From: Vicinamibacterales bacterium
Lineage (GTDB): Bacteria > Acidobacteriota > Vicinamibacteria > Vicinamibacterales > CAVVIG01
NCBI GenBank assembly: GCA_050249955.1
Contig: JBFWPN010000002.1
Coordinates: forward strand, 392,442 to 456,441
DNA: 64,000 nt
Reading direction: 5' to 3'
The notes below the pieces were generated by a model that saw only the letters and a program-made list of their open reading frames with translations, made no database searches and was not told the DNA's origin. Shown piece by piece: positions 10,947-57,079 of the stretch. The position numbers were made by a program, and so were the translations under genes. Numbering within the stretch: position 1 is the first letter of the stretch; each line of letters starts with the position of its first letter.

Positions 10947-12110
10947 ATGAAACGACTCCTTTCCGTCGCCGCCACATTCGGCATCCTGTCACTCGCTCTC
11001 GTCACGGCGCAGCAGCCGTCCACGCCAGGCCAGGTGGTGCGGCGGCCGGCCGAAGGCCGTGAACCGGAACTGCAGCAGCCCCGGATCCGCGAGTACCATC
11101 CGCGCTCCACGCTGGTGGTGCCCGAGCACAAGGTGCCGAAGGCGAAGTTCCCGGTGATCGACTTCCACCACCACCCGCCGCGATCGATGTCCGTCGAGGA
11201 CGTCAACCGCGTGGGCGACGAGATGGCGCCGCTCAACCTGGGCCTGATGATCAACGCCAACGCCACGCCGAGCAGCGGCCTCAAGCCGGCACTCGATGCC
11301 ATTGCCGCGAGCCGCTACAAGGGCAGGATGGTGATGTTCGTCGGGCTCGACCTCAGGAACGTGGGGCCGGGGTCAGGCCAGAAGATCGCCGCACAGCTCG
11401 AGGCGGACGTGAAGGCGGGCGCTCTCGGCGTCGGCGAACTCATGAAGAGCTTCGGCCTGACCATCAAGAAGGCCGACGGTTCGCGTCTGAAGATCGACGA
11501 TCCTGAACTGGACCCCGTGTGGCAGACGGCCGCGCGCCTGAAGATCCCCATCTTCATGCACACCGCCGACCCCTCCGAGTTCTTCCAGCCGCTCGACTAC
11601 CGCAACGAGCGGTGGCTCGAGCTGGCCCTCTATCCGGACCGCCGCTACCAGGACCGCTCGCGCTTCCCGAGCTTCGAGGAGCTGATGGCGGAGCGGGACC
11701 GGCTCATCGCTCGCCACCCGAACGTCACCTGGGTGCTCGCCCACATGGGCTGGCACGCCAACGACCTGGCCCGGCTCGGCAGGATGTTCGACAGGCATCC
11801 GAACCTCTACGGCGAACTCGGGGCCGTGCTCTACGACTTCGGCCGGCAACCCAGGACTGCGCACGATTTCTTCGTGAAGTACCAGGATCGCATCCTGTTC
11901 GGTAAAGACAGCTTCCAGCCTGACGAATACCCCTACTACTGGCGCGTGTTCGAGACCAACGACGAGTACTTCGACTATTACCGGGACTACCACGCGTTCT
12001 GGAAGCTCTATGGCATCGGGTTGCCCGATGCCGTGCTGAAGAAGGTCTATTACGCCAACGCCCTGCGGATTACCCCGAACCTGCCCAGGGCCGGCTTCCC
12101 GGCCAACTAA
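10947..12110 (+). CDS. Secreted amidohydrolase-superfamily (TIM-barrel metal hydrolase) protein
   Basis: Signal peptide MKRLLSVAATFGILSLALVTAQQ. Metal motif PVIDFHHH, later FMHTADP and LAHMGWH. Substrate unknown. Confidence 0.75.
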   Translation: MKRLLSVAATFGILSLALVTAQQPSTPGQVVRRPAEGREPELQQPRIREYHPRSTLVVPEHKVPKAKFPVIDFHHHPPRSMSVEDVNRVGDEMAPLNLGLMINANATPSSGLKPALDAIAASRYKGRMVMFVGLDLRNVGPGSGQKIAAQLEADVKAGALGVGELMKSFGLTIKKADGSRLKIDDPELDPVWQTAARLKIPIFMHTADPSEFFQPLDYRNERWLELALYPDRRYQDRSRFPSFEELMAERDRLIARHPNVTWVLAHMGWHANDLARLGRMFDRHPNLYGELGAVLYDFGRQPRTAHDFFVKYQDRILFGKDSFQPDEYPYYWRVFETNDEYFDYYRDYHAFWKLYGIGLPDAVLKKVYYANALRITPNLPRAGFPAN

Positions 12111-19052: not shown

Positions 19053-21635
19053 ATGCACTCACCCCACTCCGCGCTCCGGATTGTCACCGCTGCCGTTGCG
19101 GTGCTCGTTGCCACGGTGACCCTGACCACCGTGCCGTTCAAGGCCCAGGGCCGTCAGGCGCCCGGCAGCACCAGCTCCATCGAGGAACGCACGTCGTCGA
19201 TGCAGAAGCTCGACGGGTTCGTCCCGCTCTACTGGGACGAGCGTGCTGGCGCGCTGTTCATCGAGATCCCGCGCTTCGATGCCGAGTTCCTGTTGACCAC
19301 CGGGCTGGCGGCCGGGCTCGGTTCGAACGACCTCGGACTCGATCGCGGGCAGTCGGGCGGCGGGCGCGTCGTGATGTTCCAGCGGGTTGGCCCGAAGGTG
19401 CTCCTGGTCCAGACCAATCAGGCTTTCAGGTCCACGAGTGCCAATCCGGCGGAACGCAAGTCGGTGGAGGACTCGTTCGCGAAGTCCGTGCTCTGGGGCT
19501 TCACCGTGGCGGCCGAGTCGAACGGTCGCGTGCTGGTCGACGCGTCGGAGTTCCTGCTGCGCGACATCCACGGTGCGGCCGACGGGCTCCGTCCGGGCAC
19601 CTACCGGGTCGATCGCGCGCGCAGTGTGTTCCACATGCCCCGCACGAAGGCGTTCCCGAAGAACACCGAGGTCGAGACGACGCTGACCTTCACCAACGAA
19701 GTGGGCGCGGGTCGTGGCGGTGGGGGAGGGCCGGCTGACGGCCCGGACGCGATCGGCACCGCCCCGGTCCAGCCGACCGGCGGTCGCGGCCTGAGCCGCC
19801 TCTTCTCGGGCAGCGTGGCCAGCGTCTCGCCGAACGCACAGGCGGTCACGCTGCGCCAGCATGTCTCGTTCGTGGAACTGCCGGACGCCGGGTATCGACC
19901 GCGGCTGGACGACCCACGTGCGGGCTACGGTGGCATCAGCTTCGTCGACTACAGCGTGCCGATCGGCGACAACATCCAGCAGCGCTGGATCCGACGCCAT
20001 CGGCTGGAGAAGAAGGATCCGGCGGCCGCGATCAGCGAACCGGTGACGCCGATCCGGTACTGGGTCGATCCGGGGGCACCCGAGGACGTGCGGAAGGCGC
20101 TGCTCGAGGGCGCGAGCTGGTGGAACCAGGCGTTCGAGGCGGCCGGGTTCCGCAACGCCTTCAAGGTGGACGTACTGCCGGCGGATGCCGACCCGATGGA
20201 CATCCGCTACAACATGATCAACTGGGTGCACCGCTCGACGCGGGGCTGGAGCTCGGGCTCGACCGTCACCGACCCGCGCACCGGCGAGATCCTGAAGGCG
20301 ACGGTCACGCTGGGGTCGCTTCGCGATCGACAGGACTACCTGATCTTCGAGGGTCTGCTCTCGCCGTACGCCACCGGTACGGAACGGCCGCAGGCGCTGT
20401 ACGACACCGCGCTGATGCGCATCCGCCAGCTCGCGGCGCACGAGACCGGTCATACGCTCGGCCTGAGCCACAACTACTACGACAGTGCGAAGGGCTGGAT
20501 CTCGGTGATGGACTACCCGCATCCGCTGGAGGAACTGCGGCCGGACGGGACGATCGATATTTCGAGGGCCTATCCGCAGCGGATCGGCGACTGGGACAAG
20601 ATCGCCATCAACTACGGCTACCGTCAGCTCGCGCCCGGGGCGAACGAGCCGCAGGCACTCACGCGGATCCTTGACGAGGCGTGGGCGCAGGACCTGCGAT
20701 TCCTCACGAACCAGGACATGGACGCCAACCCGAGGGCGGATTGGTGGTCAAACGGCGCCAACCAGGCCGACGAGCTGAACCGCCTGCTGAAGGTCCGCCG
20801 CGCGGCGCTGGACCGGCTTGGCGAGCGCACCATCCGCGCGGGCATGCCGATGGCGACGATCGAGGAACCGCTGGTGCCCGTGTACATGTATCACCGCTGG
20901 GCGGTCGAAGCCGCCGCCTCGATCGTGGCGGGGCAGAACTACGTCTACGGCATCCGGGGCGACAATCGCATACCAACACAGTGGGCGTCGGCCGAGGACC
21001 AGGGGGCGGCCCTCGTCGCGCTGTCCGCGGCACTGAGGCCGTCGGAGCTCACGATCCCCGCGTCGCTGCTCGGGAAGATTCCACCAAGGCCCCCGGCCTG
21101 GGAGCGTCACCGCGAGCTCTTCCCGCGCACGACTGGCGATACGTTCGACCCGCTCACGCCGGCGATGATCGCGGCTGACGTGACCATCGGCTTCGTGCTG
21201 CAGATCGAGCGTGCGGCGCGGCTCGTGGCACAGCACGCTGTCGACCCGACACTGCCCGGCCTGGACGATGTGCTGGAGCGGCTGCAGGTGGCGACGTTCG
21301 GCGCCACGGCCGCATCGTCCTATGAGGCCGAGGTGCGCCGCGTCGAAGAGCGGGTGTTCGTCGACCGTGTGATGTGGCTCGCGTGGGCATCGCCCAACCC
21401 GCAGGTACGTGCATTCGCGACCGCGCGGCTCGCGGCGATTGCCGATCGCCTGAGGACGGTGGCCGGCGCCGACTCGGGGGATCGCGCGGCGCACGCCCTG
21501 CTCGTCAGCGACATCCAGAAGTTCCTCGAGCGTCCCTCCGACCCGTCGAAGTCGATCCTGCCGCCGCAGGCGCCACCAGGTGCGCCCATCGGCGATCTCC
21601 CCATGGACTGGCTCGCGCCAGCCCCCTGGAGGTAG
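19053..21635 (+). CDS. Secreted zinc metalloprotease (HExxHxxGxxH metzincin-like, DUF5117/5118-type architecture)
   Basis: Start at MHSPHSALRIVTAAVAVLVATVTL (signal/anchor). Zinc motif HETGHTLGLSHN. About 860 aa. Confidence 0.8.
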   Translation: MHSPHSALRIVTAAVAVLVATVTLTTVPFKAQGRQAPGSTSSIEERTSSMQKLDGFVPLYWDERAGALFIEIPRFDAEFLLTTGLAAGLGSNDLGLDRGQSGGGRVVMFQRVGPKVLLVQTNQAFRSTSANPAERKSVEDSFAKSVLWGFTVAAESNGRVLVDASEFLLRDIHGAADGLRPGTYRVDRARSVFHMPRTKAFPKNTEVETTLTFTNEVGAGRGGGGGPADGPDAIGTAPVQPTGGRGLSRLFSGSVASVSPNAQAVTLRQHVSFVELPDAGYRPRLDDPRAGYGGISFVDYSVPIGDNIQQRWIRRHRLEKKDPAAAISEPVTPIRYWVDPGAPEDVRKALLEGASWWNQAFEAAGFRNAFKVDVLPADADPMDIRYNMINWVHRSTRGWSSGSTVTDPRTGEILKATVTLGSLRDRQDYLIFEGLLSPYATGTERPQALYDTALMRIRQLAAHETGHTLGLSHNYYDSAKGWISVMDYPHPLEELRPDGTIDISRAYPQRIGDWDKIAINYGYRQLAPGANEPQALTRILDEAWAQDLRFLTNQDMDANPRADWWSNGANQADELNRLLKVRRAALDRLGERTIRAGMPMATIEEPLVPVYMYHRWAVEAAASIVAGQNYVYGIRGDNRIPTQWASAEDQGAALVALSAALRPSELTIPASLLGKIPPRPPAWERHRELFPRTTGDTFDPLTPAMIAADVTIGFVLQIERAARLVAQHAVDPTLPGLDDVLERLQVATFGATAASSYEAEVRRVEERVFVDRVMWLAWASPNPQVRAFATARLAAIADRLRTVAGADSGDRAAHALLVSDIQKFLERPSDPSKSILPPQAPPGAPIGDLPMDWLAPAPWR

Positions 21636-21648
21636 ACCGCGCGACCGG

Positions 21649-22992
21649 CTACTTCCGTGAGAGCAGCTCCAGGATCGCCGCCGTCTCGGCCCTGACGGCA
21701 GCCTTCAATGTCGGCTCGAGGTCCGGCGCCCACTCGGGCGAGTGCGGCGCTGGCACCGGAGTGCCCGTACGCCTCGCCTCGTCGAGCTTCACCTGCGAGA
21801 CGGCCCCGATGTGCAGCAGCACGGACGGTACGCCAGCGACGCCGAACTCGGCGAAGTCCTCGGAGGTCATCTTCTGGGGCATCTCGGTGACGCCCGCGGC
21901 ACCGAGCTGGGTCCTGAGAGCGGTCGCCAGCCTGCTGGTGGTCGCTGGGTCGTTGAAGACCGGTGGCGCCGCGGTGGCCGGCGCGTCCACCTTCGGCTCC
22001 CTCGGTGCGTTGGCCGCCATCGCCTCGCCCTTCGCCACGCGGCGGATGGCGTCGAGCATGCGCTGGCGGGTCTCCTTCGAGTAGGTTCGCACGGACAGCT
22101 GCAACCGCACTTCGTCCGGAATGACGTTGCCGGCGGTACCTCCATGGATGGATCCGATCGTGAGCACCACCGGATCGACCGGGTTGCTCTCACGCGACAC
22201 GATGGTCTGCAGCGAGAGCACGATCTTCGACGCCAGCACCACCGGGTCCACGGTGTTGTGCGGCATGGCGCCATGCCCACCGCGCCCGTACACGGTCACG
22301 GTGACGCCGTCCGAAATCGACCGGAACAGCCCCGGGTGATACCCCACCACCCCAGATGGCATCGTGTCGTCGTCATGGAAGGAGAGCGCGAAGTCCGGAC
22401 GTGGGAAACGGGTGAAGAGCCCGTCTTTGAGCATCGCCGCCGCACCGCCTCCGCCTTCCTCGGCCGGCTGCCCGACCATGACGAGCGTGCCGCTCCAGCG
22501 GGTGCGGTTCGCCGCCATCAGCCGAGCGGTACCGGCCCACGCGGCCATGTGGAGGTCGTGGCCGCAGGCGTGCATAACAGGTGTCGTGGTGCCGCTGGCC
22601 GTCTTTCCTGTCTGACGGCTGGCGAAGGGCAGACCGGTCTTCTCCTCGACCGGCAGGGCGTCCATCTCGGTGCGCATCATCACCGTGGGGCCGGGCCCGT
22701 TGCGCAGGACGCCGACGACACCGGTCCGGCCGATGCCGGTGGAGACCTCGAAGCCAAGCCCCTCGAGGTGACTCGCGAGCGCCGCCGAGGTCCGCACCTC
22801 CTGGAAGCCCAGCTCCGGGTGTTCGTGCAGGTCCACGTAGAGCGCGCGGAGGTCGGGATAGATTCCATCCACCTCGCTCGTTGTCGGGGCCAGCCAGCGC
22901 TCGCTGGCTGCCGTGCCGCCCCGCTGGGCCTGGACTGATGCTATACAGACGCTGACGGTCAGTGCGGTGGCGAGCGGCAGGAGACGTGTCAT
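21649..22992 (-). CDS. Secreted M20-family amidohydrolase (N-acyl-amino-acid / hippurate hydrolase type)
   Basis: Signal peptide MTRLLPLATALTVSVCIASVQAQ. M20D motifs MHACGHD, GQPAEEGGGGA and GGHGAMPH. Confidence 0.85.
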   Translation of the reverse strand: MTRLLPLATALTVSVCIASVQAQRGGTAASERWLAPTTSEVDGIYPDLRALYVDLHEHPELGFQEVRTSAALASHLEGLGFEVSTGIGRTGVVGVLRNGPGPTVMMRTEMDALPVEEKTGLPFASRQTGKTASGTTTPVMHACGHDLHMAAWAGTARLMAANRTRWSGTLVMVGQPAEEGGGGAAAMLKDGLFTRFPRPDFALSFHDDDTMPSGVVGYHPGLFRSISDGVTVTVYGRGGHGAMPHNTVDPVVLASKIVLSLQTIVSRESNPVDPVVLTIGSIHGGTAGNVIPDEVRLQLSVRTYSKETRQRMLDAIRRVAKGEAMAANAPREPKVDAPATAAPPVFNDPATTSRLATALRTQLGAAGVTEMPQKMTSEDFAEFGVAGVPSVLLHIGAVSQVKLDEARRTGTPVPAPHSPEWAPDLEPTLKAAVRAETAAILELLSRK

Positions 22993-23070
22993 GGCGTCCC
23001 AGAGTCTAGCCGGTTTGTCACCATCGCACGCAGGGCTGCATCTCCTGCTGCGGGTGTTCTGGGAGGAGCC

Positions 23071-24504
23071 ATGCTGGTCCGCCAAATTGCCGATCCGAAG
23101 CTTGCACAGTTTGCCTACCTCGTGGGGTGTCCCGCCACTGGTGAGGCCTTGATCATCGACCCTCAGCGGGATATCGACCGCTACGTGGCCGAAGCGGCCC
23201 GGGTCGGCCTGCGAATTGTCGCTGCTGCCGACACGCACATCCACGCCGACTACCTGTCGGGGCTGCGCGAGTTCGCGGCCCGCGGCGTGCCCGTGTATGC
23301 GTCGCGCGAGGGCGGTCCAGACTGGCAGTACGAATGGCTGGCCGGGTCGGCGTATCCGCACCACCTCCTCGGCGACGGGGACACGTTCAAGGTGGGCAAC
23401 ATCGAACTCACAGCCGTGCACACACCAGGACATACGCCCGAGCACCTGAGTTACCTGGTGCGCGACGGCGGTTCAGGTGCGAGCCAGCCCATCGCCATTG
23501 CGAGCGGCGACTTCGTGTTCGTGGGCGACGTCGGCCGGCCCGACCTGCTCGAGCGTGCCGCCGGCATCACGGGCGTGATGCAGGGGGCGGCGCGTGACCA
23601 GTACGCCTCGATTCACCGGGTTTTCAAGGGGCTGCCCGAGTTCCTGCAGGTGTGGCCCGGCCATGGGGCAGGCAGCGCCTGCGGCAAGTCACTGGGCGAC
23701 ATCCCGATGTCGACCGTGGGCTACGAACTGCGCGTCAACCCATCCATCCGGGCCGCGGACACACAGGAGCACTTCGTGGACTTCATCCTCGCGGGTCAGC
23801 CGGAACCTCCGGCCTACTTCGCGCGCATGAAGCGCGAGAACCGGAGCGGGCCGGCCGTGCTCGGCGAGTTGCCCAGGCCTCGCGAGGTGGGACAGGACGA
23901 ACTTGGTGCTCTGGCGTCGTCGAGTGGCGTCGTCATCCTCGACACGAGGTCGCGGCGCGAGTTCCTGGCCGGGCACCTTCCCGGTGCGCTGCTGACCGAG
24001 GCCGACTATCAGCTCTCCGCGATTGCGGGCTCGTATGCCGACCCGGCGCTGCCGGTCTACCTGGTGGTGCCAGCGTCGCGCGCCGACGAGGTGGTTCGGG
24101 GCCTCGTCCGGGTGGGCATCGATCGCATCGAAGGCATCATCACGCCCGATACACTCGCAGCCTGGGCGGCCGCTGGCGGCACGCTGCACCCGACGTCGGT
24201 CATCGACATGGGCGGGCTCGAGCGGCAGCGGCTGGCGGGTACCGTGCACGTGCTCGATGTGCGCGCACCGGCGGAGTTCGAGGCCGGCCACGTACCTGGC
24301 GCCATCAACATTCCGCACACGCGGCTGGGCGAGCGGTACCGTGAACTGCCGACCGATCGGCCTCTGGCGGTGCACTGCAGGAGCGGCGCCCGGTCGGCGG
24401 CTGCCAGCTCGCTGCTCGAGCGGCTTGGCTTCTCCGTGGTGGACGTGAACGACCTGTTCGCGCATTATCAGCAGGCGACTGCACCCGCACACACCGCCTC
24501 GTAG
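23071..24504 (+). CDS. Metallo-beta-lactamase-fold hydrolase fused to two rhodanese domains (persulfide-dioxygenase-like)
   Basis: MBL motif ADTHIHADYLSG and HTPGHTPEH. Two rhodanese repeats follow. The second has the active-site loop VHCRSGARS; the first lacks the Cys. Confidence 0.85.
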   Translation: MLVRQIADPKLAQFAYLVGCPATGEALIIDPQRDIDRYVAEAARVGLRIVAAADTHIHADYLSGLREFAARGVPVYASREGGPDWQYEWLAGSAYPHHLLGDGDTFKVGNIELTAVHTPGHTPEHLSYLVRDGGSGASQPIAIASGDFVFVGDVGRPDLLERAAGITGVMQGAARDQYASIHRVFKGLPEFLQVWPGHGAGSACGKSLGDIPMSTVGYELRVNPSIRAADTQEHFVDFILAGQPEPPAYFARMKRENRSGPAVLGELPRPREVGQDELGALASSSGVVILDTRSRREFLAGHLPGALLTEADYQLSAIAGSYADPALPVYLVVPASRADEVVRGLVRVGIDRIEGIITPDTLAAWAAAGGTLHPTSVIDMGGLERQRLAGTVHVLDVRAPAEFEAGHVPGAINIPHTRLGERYRELPTDRPLAVHCRSGARSAAASSLLERLGFSVVDVNDLFAHYQQATAPAHTAS

Positions 24505-54836: not shown

Positions 54837-54865
54837 ATACTAGCATCCGCCCGTCGGTCGGTCAA
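54837..54865 (-). promoter_or_regulatory. Sigma-70-type promoter for mltD
   Basis: The minus strand reads TTGACC-17 nt-TAGTAT, in the only locally A+T-enriched patch of this intergenic region. Confidence 0.5.
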
Positions 54866-54958: not shown

Positions 54959-56686
54959 TCAGCCGTGGAAGGGGGCCGGCGCGAACACCCGGTTCGCCTC
55001 GCCCAGTTCGCGAGCCGAGGGGGTGACGATCGCCCGCTCGGAGACGACGAGCGTTCGACCCTCGCGCATGGCCTTGCGGACATCCTCCTCGCAGACGAAG
55101 TCCAGGGGCGGGGCATCCGAACCGCTTGTGGCTGCCGGACCGGCGGACGTGGTGCCCCCGTCCGTGGCCGCGACACCCTTGTAGCCGCGCGACCCCAGGA
55201 ACTGCTCAATCCGCTGCGTCAGCACCTTGGACGTGATGCCGGCCGAGGGCGCCACACGCGCCGGGCCCGACACCGGCAACGTGATGCCGGATGCCCGCTC
55301 GAACCGGTTCGGCACGGAGGTGACTTCGTAGGCCAGCCGCTTGATGTTGAGCAGGTGCCGCGGAGTGATGTTGTCCGACGTGATGTTGCCGCCGTAGCCG
55401 CCGCATCCCAGTGTCATCGCGGGATCGAGACCCGAGGAGATGCCGGTGGATCCGAACGTGGTCGGCGTGTTCACCGCAATGCGGAAGGCCGGTTTCTTCA
55501 GCCCGAACTCGAGGATCACCTGCTCGTTCTGCGAGTGGATCCCCATGGTGTGACCCATGCCGCCGTACCGCAGGATCTGCTTGCAGCGTTCGCAGCCCTC
55601 GCGCCAGTCGGCCACCACGTAGAACGAGAGGACCGGGCACAGCTTCTCGATGGACAGGGGGTGGTCGCGGCCAACCCCGTCGAGTTCGGCGATGAGCACC
55701 CTGGTGCCGTCCGGCACGGTGATGCCGCAGGCGCTGGCGATGGCGACCGCGGACTTCCCGACCAGCGTTGGATTCGGTAGCCGCTGGGGAGTGACCAGCA
55801 CCGCCGCCACCTTGCTGCGCTCCGCCGGGCTCAGGAAGTGGCACCCCTGCGCCTGGAACTCGCGCTTCACCTGCTCGGCAATCGGCGCATCGACGACCAC
55901 GGAGTTCTCCGACGAGCAGAGCACGCCGTTGTCGAAGGTCTTGCCGGTGATGATGTCGCGCACGGCCTTCTTCACGTCGGCCGTCCGCTCGATGTAAGCA
56001 GGGGCGTTGCCCGGTCCGACGCCGTACGCCGGCTTGCCGGCCGAGTAGGCGGCGCGCACCAGGCCCATCCCACCGGTGGCAAGGATGACCGCCACCTCGC
56101 GCTGCTTCATCAGCTCCTGCGTCCCTTCGAGCGACACCGTCGTCATCCAGCTGATGGCTCCCGCGGGCGCTCCCGCGCGCCGCGCGGCCTCATCCATCAC
56201 TTCGGCCACCCGTGTGATGCACGTCACGGCCGACGGGTGCGGGCTCAGGACGATGGTGCAGCGGGCCTTCAGGGCGATGAGAATCTTGTAGATGGCGGTC
56301 GACGTCGGGTTGGTCGACGGGACGATGGCCGCGACGACGCCGAATGGCTCGGCGATCTCGACAACCCGCCGCTCCTCGTGCCGTGCCACGACCCCCACCG
56401 TCTTCATGCCCTTGATGAAGTCGTAGACCTTGCGGGAGGCGAACAGGTTCTTCTGGATCTTGTCTTCGTAGACGCCGAAGCCGGTCTCGTCCACGGCCAT
56501 GCGGGCGAACACCTCGGCCTGCGCGGTGGCAGCCTCGGCCATCGCGGTCACGATGGCGTCAATCCGTTCCTGGGAGAACTCGGCGAGTTCGAGCCAGGCC
56601 TGCCTGGCCCGGCGGGCGAGGGCACGGGCCTCGGCGATGGACGCGAGGTCGCGATCGCCGTGGGGGCTGACGGCGGCGTCGGCCAT
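54959..56686 (-). CDS. CoA-acylating aldehyde dehydrogenase (AdhE-N/EutE/PduP family) with a 120-aa C-terminal extension
   Basis: Catalytic Cys context [15 protein letters not shown]. The core ends [29 protein letters not shown] as in AdhE-type acylating ALDHs. 575 aa, against the ~460 aa I recall for typical EutE/PduP. Starts 6 nt after the BMC-H stop. Confidence 0.9.
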
Positions 56687-56692
56687 CGGCGG

Positions 56693-56971
56693 CTAGGCGC
56701 CCTTCGGCAGGATGCGCTCGACCTCGGCGTGAGGGCGCGGAATGACGTGGACGGACACCAGCTCACCGACCCGGCGGGCAGCTGCGGCCCCGGCGTCGGT
56801 GGCGGCCTTCACCGCGCCGACGTCGCCACGGACCATGACGGTGACGTACCCGGCGCCGATGTACTCCTTCGCGATCAGCGCGACATTGGCGGTCTTCACC
56901 ATGGCGTCGGCCGCTTCGACCGAGCCGATCAGCCCCTTTGTTTCCACCAGTCCCAGCGCGTCGTGTGCCAC
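56693..56971 (-). CDS. Bacterial microcompartment shell protein, BMC-H (PduA/EutM/CcmK type, Pfam PF00936 fold)
   Basis: GTG start with AGGAG 7 nt upstream. [92 protein letters not shown] is collinear with PduA along its whole length. 92 aa. Confidence 0.93.
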
Positions 56972-56990
56972 GTCAGACTCCTGCGCCGAA

Positions 56991-57003
56991 ACTGTAGCAC
57001 ACG
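56991..57003 (-). promoter_or_regulatory. Extended -10 promoter element for the BMC-H/ALDH operon
   Basis: The minus strand reads CGTGTGCTACAGT, ending about 20 nt upstream of the GTG start. Identical 13-mer to 49786-49798. Confidence 0.45.
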
Positions 57004-57079
57004 GGTCCGCCCGATTGCGCCTGCCCGCGGCATCCGCTAGCATTCCTAGGTTTCACTCTGAGCGATTTTCCGGAGCATT

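Follow-up and report, generated by a model that had tools for sequence, protein, structure and literature searches.

A shell hexamer gene coupled to an aldehyde dehydrogenase gene in a Vicinamibacterales genome: very probably a satellite locus of the ACI-type bacterial microcompartment

How can a gene for a bacterial microcompartment (BMC) shell protein and a gene for an aldehyde dehydrogenase (ALDH) make sense side by side when no other part of a microcompartment is found around them? Such a pair lies on the minus strand of the window, by which we mean the whole stretch of 64,000 nucleotides analysed here (Table 1). The window comes from a genome of the order Vicinamibacterales, and the Vicinamibacteria correspond to Acidobacteria subdivision 6. 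An earlier note on this DNA described a 92-aa shell protein of the BMC-H type, whose gene stops 6 nt short of that for a 575-aa CoA-acylating ALDH, and coordinates, PF00936, PF00171 and PDB 3k9d all agree with that description. It left three readings side by side: a satellite belonging to a main locus at another place in the genome, a minimal assembly that sequesters aldehyde, and a non-canonical use of the shell hexamer as a scaffold. The first of these is the best supported. The pair fits the satellite locus of the ACI-type BMC on every feature tested, and we regard it as very probably such a locus; the two-gene arrangement itself is already known, having been entered under the ACI type in a catalogue of 2021. 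The other two readings are without positive support. The ALDH keeps a conserved encapsulation peptide (EP), and the BMC-H keeps all the canonical motifs of a facet protein.

The TAG stop codon of the BMC-H gene occupies 56693-56695 and the ATG of the ALDH gene begins at 56686. That the pair has an extended -10 element of its own, as had been claimed, is borne out by comparison, the element recurring as TGnTAnAnT 5′ of the BMC-H gene in most of 40 aligned related loci; it escaped a simple scan for sigma-70 promoters, as a -35 match is absent. The neighbours are also those described before, namely an MltD-like gene with SLT and LysM domains and a ComM-like gene downstream, and a divergent lipoprotein gene, an SLT gene and a pilus operon upstream. 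The 265-nt gap 3′ of the ALDH gene contains a TG-extended site of the sigma-70 kind (54865..54837, minus strand), which, to judge by its position, would serve the MltD-like gene as promoter. Rfam gave no match in this gap, and no riboswitch or known RNA was found around the pair. The GC content of the pair region, 0.68-0.69, is similar to that of the remainder of the window.

Table 1. Features of the BMC-H and ALDH gene pair, in positions of the window
Feature	Position	Strand	Basis
Extended -10 element TGcTACAGT of the two-gene operon	56991..56999	-	Sequence reading and conservation in related loci
Shine-Dalgarno sequence AGGAG	56978..56982	-	Sequence reading; 6 nt 5′ of the BMC-H GTG start
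Predicted BMC-H shell hexamer gene, 92 aa, PduA/EutM-like	56693..56971	-	PF00936, NCBIfam EutM, orthologues
Predicted CoA-acylating aldehyde dehydrogenase gene, 575 aa, type I BMC AldDh, stop codon included	54959..56686	-	PF00171, TIGR02518, PDB 3k9d
Codon of the catalytic Cys257 of the ALDH	55916..55918	-	Alignment to the PDB 3k9d motif; invariant in 33 homologues
Encapsulation-peptide-like amphipathic helix of the ALDH, aa ~484-501	55184..55237	-	Orthologue consensus, AlphaFold2
C-terminal domain of the ALDH, 49 aa (aa 527-575), EutQ-N/EutT-N/PduM-C-like	54962..55108	-	Conservation, AlphaFold2, hhalign

Is the small protein a proper shell protein? Its open reading frame extends over 56693..57043, and the GTG start at 56971 is backed by homologues, for which JGI gene calls likewise give 92 aa. 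It covers 75/75 positions of the Pfam profile PF00936 (E=3e-27) as a single BMC domain and matches NCBIfam EutM at E=5e-35. Orthologues are 82-98% identical to it, and among 79 of them the edge motif AADAMVK, containing Lys26, is retained in 78 and the pore motif KEYIGAG in 70, while the motif PRPH is found in 77 and PRPF in none. With canonical PduA/EutM hexamers it has Lys26, the pore loop and PRPH in common, and its identity to annotated EutM/PduA genes is 74-82%. The pore loop reads IGSG in PduA and IGGG in EutM, whereas the window protein has IGAG instead, and its gene lies away from other shell genes. Judged by its sequence, the BMC-H is a canonical shell hexamer.

The ALDH matches PF00171, and its best profile score, 613 bits, is to TIGR02518, acetylating acetaldehyde dehydrogenase, marginally below the cut-off of 620 bits. 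Residues 11-456 align with PDB 3k9d (E=3e-146), and AdhE N-terminal domains are matched at E~1e-110. The 11-residue motif around Cys257 aligns with FDNGTICASEQ of PDB 3k9d. The fold and the acylating-type cysteine motif make it a predicted CoA-acylating aldehyde dehydrogenase; a protein 100% identical to it, MGE3956316.1, comes from a Vicinamibacterales metagenome-assembled genome (MAG). TIGR02518 presumably corresponds to IPR013357. In the BMC catalogue IPR013357 is the type I AldDh class, the members of which carry a C-terminal EP (PMC8217296). An N-terminal EP is absent from the window ALDH, merely ~10 residues preceding the region aligned with 3k9d. Compared with the type I enzyme of PDB 3k9d, the EUT2-type AldDh of Listeria monocytogenes, the core, the cysteine motif and the C-terminal encapsulation signal are held in common, but the window ALDH adds ~120 C-terminal residues, which form a linker, the EP, a second linker and a folded domain of 49 aa.

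This C-terminal extension is under evident constraint. The helix follows the consensus GIsAexLxrRIDxFLgSRG[YF] in 69 of 75 ALDH orthologues and lies between variable linkers, and AlphaFold2 places a helix at 486-499 with low-confidence linkers on either side. The domain at the end has 12 invariant positions among 26 orthologues and was modelled by AlphaFold2 as a beta-alpha-beta-alpha-beta fold with a pLDDT of 93.7. As the helix and the domain are conserved while the linkers vary freely, selection appears to act on both of them.

To which known microcompartment, then, does such a pair belong? The comparison with the published catalogue that had been proposed for this locus gives a match among the catalogued acidobacterial types, the ACI satellite locus (Sutter, Melnicki, Schulz, Woyke & Kerfeld, 2021, Nat Commun 12:3809, Supplementary Data 2; PMC8217296). 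ACI BMCs are restricted to Acidobacteria, mainly subdivisions 4 and 6, and the AldDh on their satellite locus, which groups with ACI/MIC3 in the tree of BMC AldDhs, bears an EP towards its C-terminus and, beyond this, a ~50-aa domain whose function is unknown; only "occasionally" is this AldDh paired with a standard BMC-H, which belongs to the clade H_fuchsia with standard motifs or to H_royalpurple with a PRPF motif (PMC8217296). The window pair is alike in being from subdivision 6, in having its AldDh apart from BMC-P and aldolase genes, in the near-C-terminal EP with the ~50-aa domain behind it, and in a BMC-H partner with standard motifs and no PTAC or alcohol dehydrogenase nearby. In its motifs, the BMC-H fits the description of H_fuchsia. 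Nothing tested differs from the catalogued locus, save that the BMC-H partner, occasional in the catalogue, is constant in 78 Vicinamibacterales genomes. Outside the ACI type, a parallel is offered by the CcmK3/CcmK4 satellite of beta-carboxysomes, where hexamer genes are likewise always away from the main locus and under their own regulation, but which consists of shell genes only, while in the window pair a hexamer gene is coupled to the gene of a core enzyme.

The ACI main locus carries a PF00596 class II aldolase with a C-terminal EP, a PF00389/PF02826 2-hydroxyacid dehydrogenase, a BMC-P triplet, a BMC-H and small proteins of unknown function (PMC8217296). From the catalogue and the conserved EP, such a locus is expected elsewhere in the source genome. 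Within the 64 kb, the claim that no other BMC gene is present was confirmed: tblastn returned a single BMC-H match and nothing with four BMC-P probes, and Pfam scans of 26 window ORFs found housekeeping families alone beyond the pair. The remaining ORFs, judged by their N-terminal sequences, are presumably those for MetG, LigA, glycine-cleavage genes, GuaB, SecA and pilus genes. By the same means, no BMC-P triplet, aldolase or 2-hydroxyacid dehydrogenase was seen near the AldDh in the window. An exported Amidohydro_2 gene (10947..12110) was considered as MIC3-like cargo and rejected, having an apparent signal peptide and lying 45 kb away.

Searches for the main locus beyond the window did not retrieve it from the source genome or its relatives. 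The 120 proteins brought up by a search for BMC-H homologues are near-identical (at least 88% identity where given) and presumably come from satellites; a BMC-H of the main locus was not among them. Scanning metagenomes with a BMC-P alignment yielded 80 loci, all HO/SPU-like (T-H-P-AldDh), with AldDhs ~30% identical to the window ALDH, and viral contigs scanned with this alignment gave no BMC-P. When the profile was built on the second paralogue of the triplet, the named matches were from Acidimicrobiia and Chloroflexi, the two that were looked up being SPU-type loci with RpiB and DeoC, and no ACI main locus appeared; searching plasmids with the BMC-H brought up no record from Acidobacteria.

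Might the pair then work by itself? In this genome, or in a part of the Vicinamibacterales, there could be a self-sufficient assembly without any ACI main locus, in which the ALDH would dock via its EP and a EutQ-like module onto hexamer sheets, tubes or open patches for a pentamer-free oxidation or detoxification of aldehyde. Such an assembly would agree with the lack of a pentamer, a BMC-T and a signature enzyme in the 64 kb and of any BMC-P within 10 kb in the best 80 relatives, with the constant inheritance of the pair as a unit that has a promoter to itself and lies among housekeeping genes, with the two candidate shell-contact elements on the ALDH, and with the failure of BMC-P searches to find the main locus in any Vicinamibacterales genome. 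However, the description of the satellite itself predicts that no BMC-P is nearby, and in no case has a genome been shown to be without the main locus. Moreover, the catalogue gives ACI main loci, with a BMC-P triplet, for subdivision 6 and for the soil MAG series that also yields satellite loci, if not provably for the same genomes (PMC8217296). Against the satellite reading it counts that the catalogue was built from genomes having a main locus, so that pair-carrying genomes need not all have one (PMC8217296). We consider a self-sufficient assembly improbable.

The comparison of related genomes favours the satellite reading. The BMC-H gene is directly upstream of the ALDH gene in 78 of the 80 best related loci, and the contigs of the other two begin at the ALDH, so that the shell gene is kept in 78/78 testable loci; the earlier note had named routine absence of the shell gene in relatives as a sign of chance juxtaposition, and the adjacency found here argues against it. 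Nine out of nine lake-metagenome contigs also have the two genes adjacent within a common gene neighbourhood. Neither a BMC-P nor a second BMC-H was found within 10 kb in the best 80 loci, 78 of which are labelled as Acidobacteriota lineages, for example Vicinamibacterales, the other two seemingly being mis-binned. In a few genomes there are insertions between the lipoprotein gene and the BMC-H gene; these are not BMC parts, but code for a multi-pass membrane protein resembling a glycosyltransferase.

These data also bear on whether the pair might be a modular add-on for another BMC type, or pass by horizontal transfer from one type to another, instead of belonging firmly to ACI. Satellite modules that extend function are known, such as EUT modules beside HO/SPU6 loci (PMC8217296), and the BMC-H comes close in identity to EutM/PduA of unrelated phyla. 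Yet the strict synteny and the host-like composition point to vertical inheritance of the pair, the nearest relatives of the ALDH among the fetched genome records are all from Acidobacteriota loci, and in the catalogue ACI is always the sole BMC type of its genome (PMC8217296), so that a modular or exchanged pair seems very unlikely. Least probable is a meaningless adjacency of an ordinary cytosolic acetaldehyde dehydrogenase, which the closeness of the ALDH core to AdhE-type and free acetylating ALDHs might suggest, and a shell gene left as a relic: what is conserved already contradicts this idea, namely a BMC-H that keeps its functional motifs intact, a C-terminal helix and domain kept while the linkers vary, and the two genes side by side in every testable genome.

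If the pair is the ACI satellite, its working can be pictured as follows. Both genes would be expressed as one short operon from the conserved extended -10 promoter, the BMC-H would enter the shell as a facet hexamer, and the ALDH would be brought into the lumen by its C-terminal amphipathic EP as the aldehyde-oxidising core enzyme. There it may convert the aldehyde produced by the signature class II aldolase, a presumed substrate, with CoA and NAD+ to an acyl-CoA. The separate main locus would supply the EP-bearing aldolase, the 2-hydroxyacid dehydrogenase, the BMC-P triplet for the vertices, another BMC-H and the small proteins.

What does the 49-aa domain do at the end of such an enzyme? 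In hhalign it scored 30.7 with EutQ residues 5-40, 25.9 with EutT residues 3-41 and 21.2 with PduM residues 131-157, against 19.1 for the best of 62 other proteins and 19.3 for the best of 200 shuffles. The probabilities were 69% for EutQ (P=4.6e-5), 32% for EutT and 13% for PduM, with Pfam E~0.1, all of these being below curated thresholds. The common pattern of ~40 residues, (I/V)x(E)xD(V/I)R...G..(L/I)...V....I(V/I)TPxAR(D/E)L, is found in the EutQ H1/H2 region, the EutT N-terminus and the PduM C-terminus, and all three proteins are BMC-associated, as is the locus that encodes the ALDH domain; in the window, however, it is an enzyme that carries the module, C-terminally and behind an EP. 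No Pfam model spans this module. Foldseek against the PDB gave no significant structural match (best E=0.66), PDB sequences searched with a profile of the domain gave matches at chance level alone, and a search for representatives showed, among the 150 matches listed, apparent ALDH C-terminal fragments and no new domain architecture. The similarity to the shell-binding N-terminus of EutQ, to the EutT N-terminus and to the PduM C-terminus is weak but specific. EutQ residues 9-41 have been demonstrated experimentally to bind the Eut shell (Sci Adv 2025, PMC12487888). By analogy with the N-terminal H1/H2 of EutQ, the domain would probably give the ALDH a second direct grip on shell proteins. That a main locus exists and that the domain, in addition, is a module not recognised before, which shares ancestry with the N-termini of EutQ and EutT and anchors the enzyme to the shell, is a joint proposal to which we give even chances.

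For the Vicinamibacterales, the invariant pair of BMC-H and AldDh, with its fixed housekeeping neighbourhood and conserved promoter, makes a marker that is stable and easy to recognise. ACI also seems to be among the commonest BMC types in soil metagenomes, as more than 8,000 ALDH clusters at 90% identity were counted. The EutQ-like resemblance of the ALDH tail is possibly the sole new detail of this locus, and the likeness of what was called a domain of unknown function to EutQ leads to a testable idea of how a core enzyme may be tethered to the shell.

Two genes on the minus strand make up the pair, a 92-aa PduA/EutM-like gene whose stop codon lies 6 nt before the ATG of a 575-aa CoA-acylating aldehyde dehydrogenase (ALDH) gene (see the table for coordinates). 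The observation of the earlier note is borne out in full. The product of the first gene covers the whole PF00936 profile of Pfam (E=3e-27), matches NCBIfam EutM (E=5e-35) and is 74-82% identical to the products of annotated EutM and PduA genes. Its Lys26 edge motif is found in 78 of 79 orthologues, PRPH in 77 and the pore motif KEYIGAG in 70. Judged by these motifs, the protein is a canonical shell hexamer (BMC-H) of microcompartments (BMCs).

Coordinates of features in the window, in related loci and in Escherichia coli
Feature	Position	Strand	Remarks
BMC-domain ORF	56693..57043	minus	ORF call
BMC-H gene, 92 aa	start GTG at 56971	minus	start backed by homologues, AGGAG ahead
ALDH ORF, 575 aa	54959..56686	minus	starts with ATG; PF00171 match
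ALDH segment 1, conserved catalytic core	to ~residue 456		orthologue alignment
ALDH segment 2, variable linker	between core and helix		orthologue alignment
ALDH segment 3, conserved helix	residues 484-501		GIsAexLxrRIDxFLgSRG[YF]; orthologue alignment
ALDH segment 4, variable low-complexity linker	between helix and C-terminal domain		orthologue alignment
ALDH segment 5, conserved 49-residue domain	residues 527-575		12 invariant positions; orthologue alignment
Extended -10 element upstream of BMC-H gene	56999..56991	minus	TGcTACAGT; from sequence
Sigma-70-like site with TG extension	54865..54837	minus	in 265-nt gap after ALDH
Lipoprotein gene, 299 aa	57080..57979	plus	divergent from the pair
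Conserved housekeeping block around pair	51240..63769		loci L001-L080, L161-L164
Amidohydro_2 (PF04909) gene	10947..12110	plus	N-terminal signal-like sequence
M20 peptidase ORF, longest form	21649..23445	minus	
MBL-fold/rhodanese ORF, longest form	23071..24504	plus	
Inserted gene, related locus L005	868..2271	minus	locus coordinates
Inserted gene, related locus L043	1613..3208	minus	locus coordinates
Inserted gene, related locus L053	8198..9607	minus	locus coordinates
SPU-type locus, L170	4946..10601		
SPU-type locus, L171	5369..10563		
eutT, E. coli MG1655 (L172)	21503..22306	minus	module in first ~45 codons
eutQ, E. coli MG1655 (L172)	22303..23004	minus	module in first ~45 codons

The top family match of the ALDH is TIGR02518 (acetylating acetaldehyde dehydrogenase), at 613 bits against a cut-off of 620, and we take this family to be equivalent to IPR013357. 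In the published catalogue of BMC types, IPR013357 denotes the type I class of aldehyde dehydrogenases (AldDh), which carries a C-terminal encapsulation peptide (EP) (Sutter et al., 2021; PMC8217296). The alignment with PDB 3k9d spans residues 11-456 including the catalytic 11-residue motif (E=3e-146), with no N-terminal extension in the ALDH. Alignment of 75 orthologues defines the five segments listed in the table; AlphaFold2 predicts residues 486-499 as a helix with low-confidence linkers on either side, and the 49-residue domain as a beta-alpha-beta-alpha-beta fold (pLDDT 93.7). NCBI protein MGE3956316.1, encoded in a Vicinamibacterales MAG, is identical to the ALDH.

The earlier note's claim of a separate promoter for the pair gains support from the conservation of the extended -10 element: TGnTAnAnT is kept in most of 40 aligned related loci. 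The position of the sigma-70-like site downstream suggests that it serves the MltD-like gene, and no Rfam family matched the region around the pair. The divergent lipoprotein gene has its promoter region in common with the BMC-H/ALDH operon; its product matches nothing in Pfam or NCBIfam. Almost every related locus has this gene beside BMC-H (36-78% identity), and L008, L018, L034 and L055 have it in duplicate. In L005, L043 and L053 another gene, encoding a multi-pass membrane protein of ~470-530 aa which by eye looks like an ArnT/PMT-type glycosyltransferase, is inserted between the two and sets them 1.5-1.8 kb apart.

How constant is this arrangement among relatives? A scan with the ALDH, taking one genome per GTDB species, gave 359 relatives, of which the best 80 loci (65-88% identity) were used. 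In 78 of these best 80, the gene immediately upstream of the ALDH is a BMC-H (82-98% identity), and in the other two the contig starts at the ALDH. Synteny extends over the neighbourhood as a whole (pilus operon, SLT, lipoprotein / BMC-H, ALDH, MltD-like, ComM-like), and nine lake-metagenome contigs have the same gene order. The adjacency and the synteny thus rule out a chance juxtaposition of the two genes. Neither a BMC-P nor a second BMC-H was found within 10 kb in the best 80 loci. Their labels are Acidobacteriota or Vicinamibacterales with two exceptions: L016, labelled Bifidobacteriaceae, and L023, labelled Acidimicrobiia, both hold a syntenic Vicinamibacterales-type locus, so that an error of binning or labelling is probable. 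The classification of L004, L014 and L070, whose labels are from other acidobacterial groups (Acidobacteriaceae, Terriglobia, Solibacteraceae), may be imprecise. It is to be noted that the pair sits in a housekeeping block (PilQ..PilB/PilC, SLT, lipoprotein / BMC-H, ALDH, MltD-like, ComM-like, S9 peptidase, M23 peptidase, SecA) common to soil MAGs and lake-metagenome contigs, and that cell-wall lytic transglycosylase genes stand on both sides of the BMC genes in nearly every genome.

As had been described, the genes that flank the pair in the window are unrelated to microcompartments: on the downstream side are genes for an MltD-like SLT+LysM protein and a ComM-like protein, and on the upstream side the divergent lipoprotein gene together with an SLT gene and the type IV pilus operon. 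G+C is 0.65-0.72 throughout, and the composition does not shift at the pair. By tblastn the window holds a single BMC-H match and no match for four BMC-P probes; a Pfam scan of 26 ORFs returned housekeeping families only, and the remaining ORFs were recognised by their N-terminal sequences (MetG, LigA, glycine-cleavage genes, GuaB, SecA, pilus genes). No other BMC part was found in the 64 kb by these three approaches. The catalogue has a PF04909 HMM for its MIC3 type, and the AldDh closest to that of the ACI type of Acidobacteria is the MIC3 one (PMC8217296). The Amidohydro_2 protein of the window is probably unrelated, being apparently exported and encoded at a distance of 45 kb. The longest M20 peptidase and MBL-fold/rhodanese ORFs overlap head-to-head by ~375 nt; the true start of the former is probably far downstream of its first start codon, because the Pfam match begins only at residue 257.

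The ACI type comprises 125 loci, found in Acidobacteria only and mainly in subdivisions 4 and 6, and its AldDh sometimes has alongside it a BMC-H with mostly standard motifs (PMC8217296, Supplementary Data 2). In the catalogue this AldDh stands on a satellite locus, away from a main locus with the aldolase, the 2-hydroxyacid dehydrogenase and the BMC-P triplet. The ALDH of the window has the anatomy that the catalogue gives for ACI AldDh, an EP near the C-terminus followed by a domain of ~50 aa. As the acidobacterial lineage, this anatomy, a canonical BMC-H and the absence of BMC-P nearby all agree with the type, we file the pair, by its sequence features, as an ACI satellite locus. The finding is thus real and was accurately described; since the arrangement is catalogued, it is already known.

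Can the C-terminal domain tell us something about the pairing? It gave sub-threshold Pfam matches (E 0.08-0.25) to the C-terminal end of the PduM family PF15953, always at profile positions 117-150. With hhalign it aligned to two E. coli proteins, EutQ (residues 5-40, score 30.7, E-value 4.6e-5) and EutT (residues 3-41, 25.9, 4.9e-4), and to PduM (residues 131-157, 21.2, 0.0022). The best control scores were 19.1 for 62 further proteins, drawn from the window and from the remainder of the eut region, and 19.3 for 200 shuffles of EutQ. EutQ and EutT were taken from the MG1655 record; the PduM sequence was confirmed as a PF15953 member (208 bits). The domain and these targets have the pattern (I/V)x(E)xD(V/I)R...G..(L/I)..V....I(V/I)TPxAR(D/E)L in common. 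The N-termini of EutQ and EutT are not covered by any Pfam model, a Foldseek search with the domain found no structure of significant similarity, and the 150 matches listed in a representative search appear to be this ALDH tail again, with no new domain architecture among them. Experiments have shown that EutQ binds the Eut shell through residues 9-41 (H1/H2) and cargo encapsulation peptides through H3/H4 (PMC12487888). By analogy, and on a weak similarity, the ACI AldDh might have a module that binds the shell directly, besides its EP, which would fit the constant pairing with a hexamer gene. A small module of the form (I)Tx..(I/L)R...G......(I/L)TP.ARE(L/V) seems common to the EutT and EutQ N-termini, the PduM C-terminus and the ACI AldDh tail, and it may represent a recurrent domain of BMC-associated proteins that has not been described.

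Three readings had been offered: a satellite of a main locus elsewhere, a minimal aldehyde-sequestering assembly, and a hexamer used as a scaffold for one enzyme. The first is by far the best supported, and the catalogue together with the conserved encapsulation peptide points to a main locus elsewhere in the source genome. Searches with BMC-H and BMC-P, viral contigs included, retrieved no ACI main locus from the source genome or its relatives: the BMC-H search was saturated with near-identical proteins, presumably satellite copies, the BMC-P searches gave only HO/SPU-type loci of other phyla, and the viral-contig scan with BMC-P found nothing. The redundancy-reduced shell-protein trees, one part of the catalogue, include ACI main-locus BMC-P proteins, "P_kiwi_aci-pdulike" (PMC8217296), from soil MAG series that also gave several satellite loci (RIFCSPLOWO2, 13_1_40CM, DMF/DMG-tagged MAGs), a match of series and not of the same genome. 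We leave a small probability that the pair is an orphan, with no main locus in the source genome; for a minimal assembly or a scaffold there we found no positive evidence. The SPU-type loci, of which the BMC-P searches gave many, have the order RpiB, DeoC, BMC-T, BMC-H, BMC-P, AldDh, BMC-T, BMC-P, BMC-P, and named matches related to the two looked up (L170, L171) are from Acidimicrobiia and Chloroflexi MAGs. In L171 two short ORFs take the place of one AldDh gene, owing either to pseudogenisation or to a frameshift in long-read data.

The products of the short operon are a facet hexamer and an acylating ALDH with an encapsulation-type helix. For the satellite reading, the catalogue and the logic of metabolosomes suggest that the ALDH would be targeted into a shell built of the main-locus BMC-H, the BMC-P triplet and the hexamer of the pair. 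Within it, aldehyde from a class II aldolase would be converted to acyl-CoA by the ALDH, the 2-hydroxyacid dehydrogenase being a candidate for cofactor recycling. For the ACI type as a whole, the catalogue suggests a role in carbohydrate degradation (PMC8217296).
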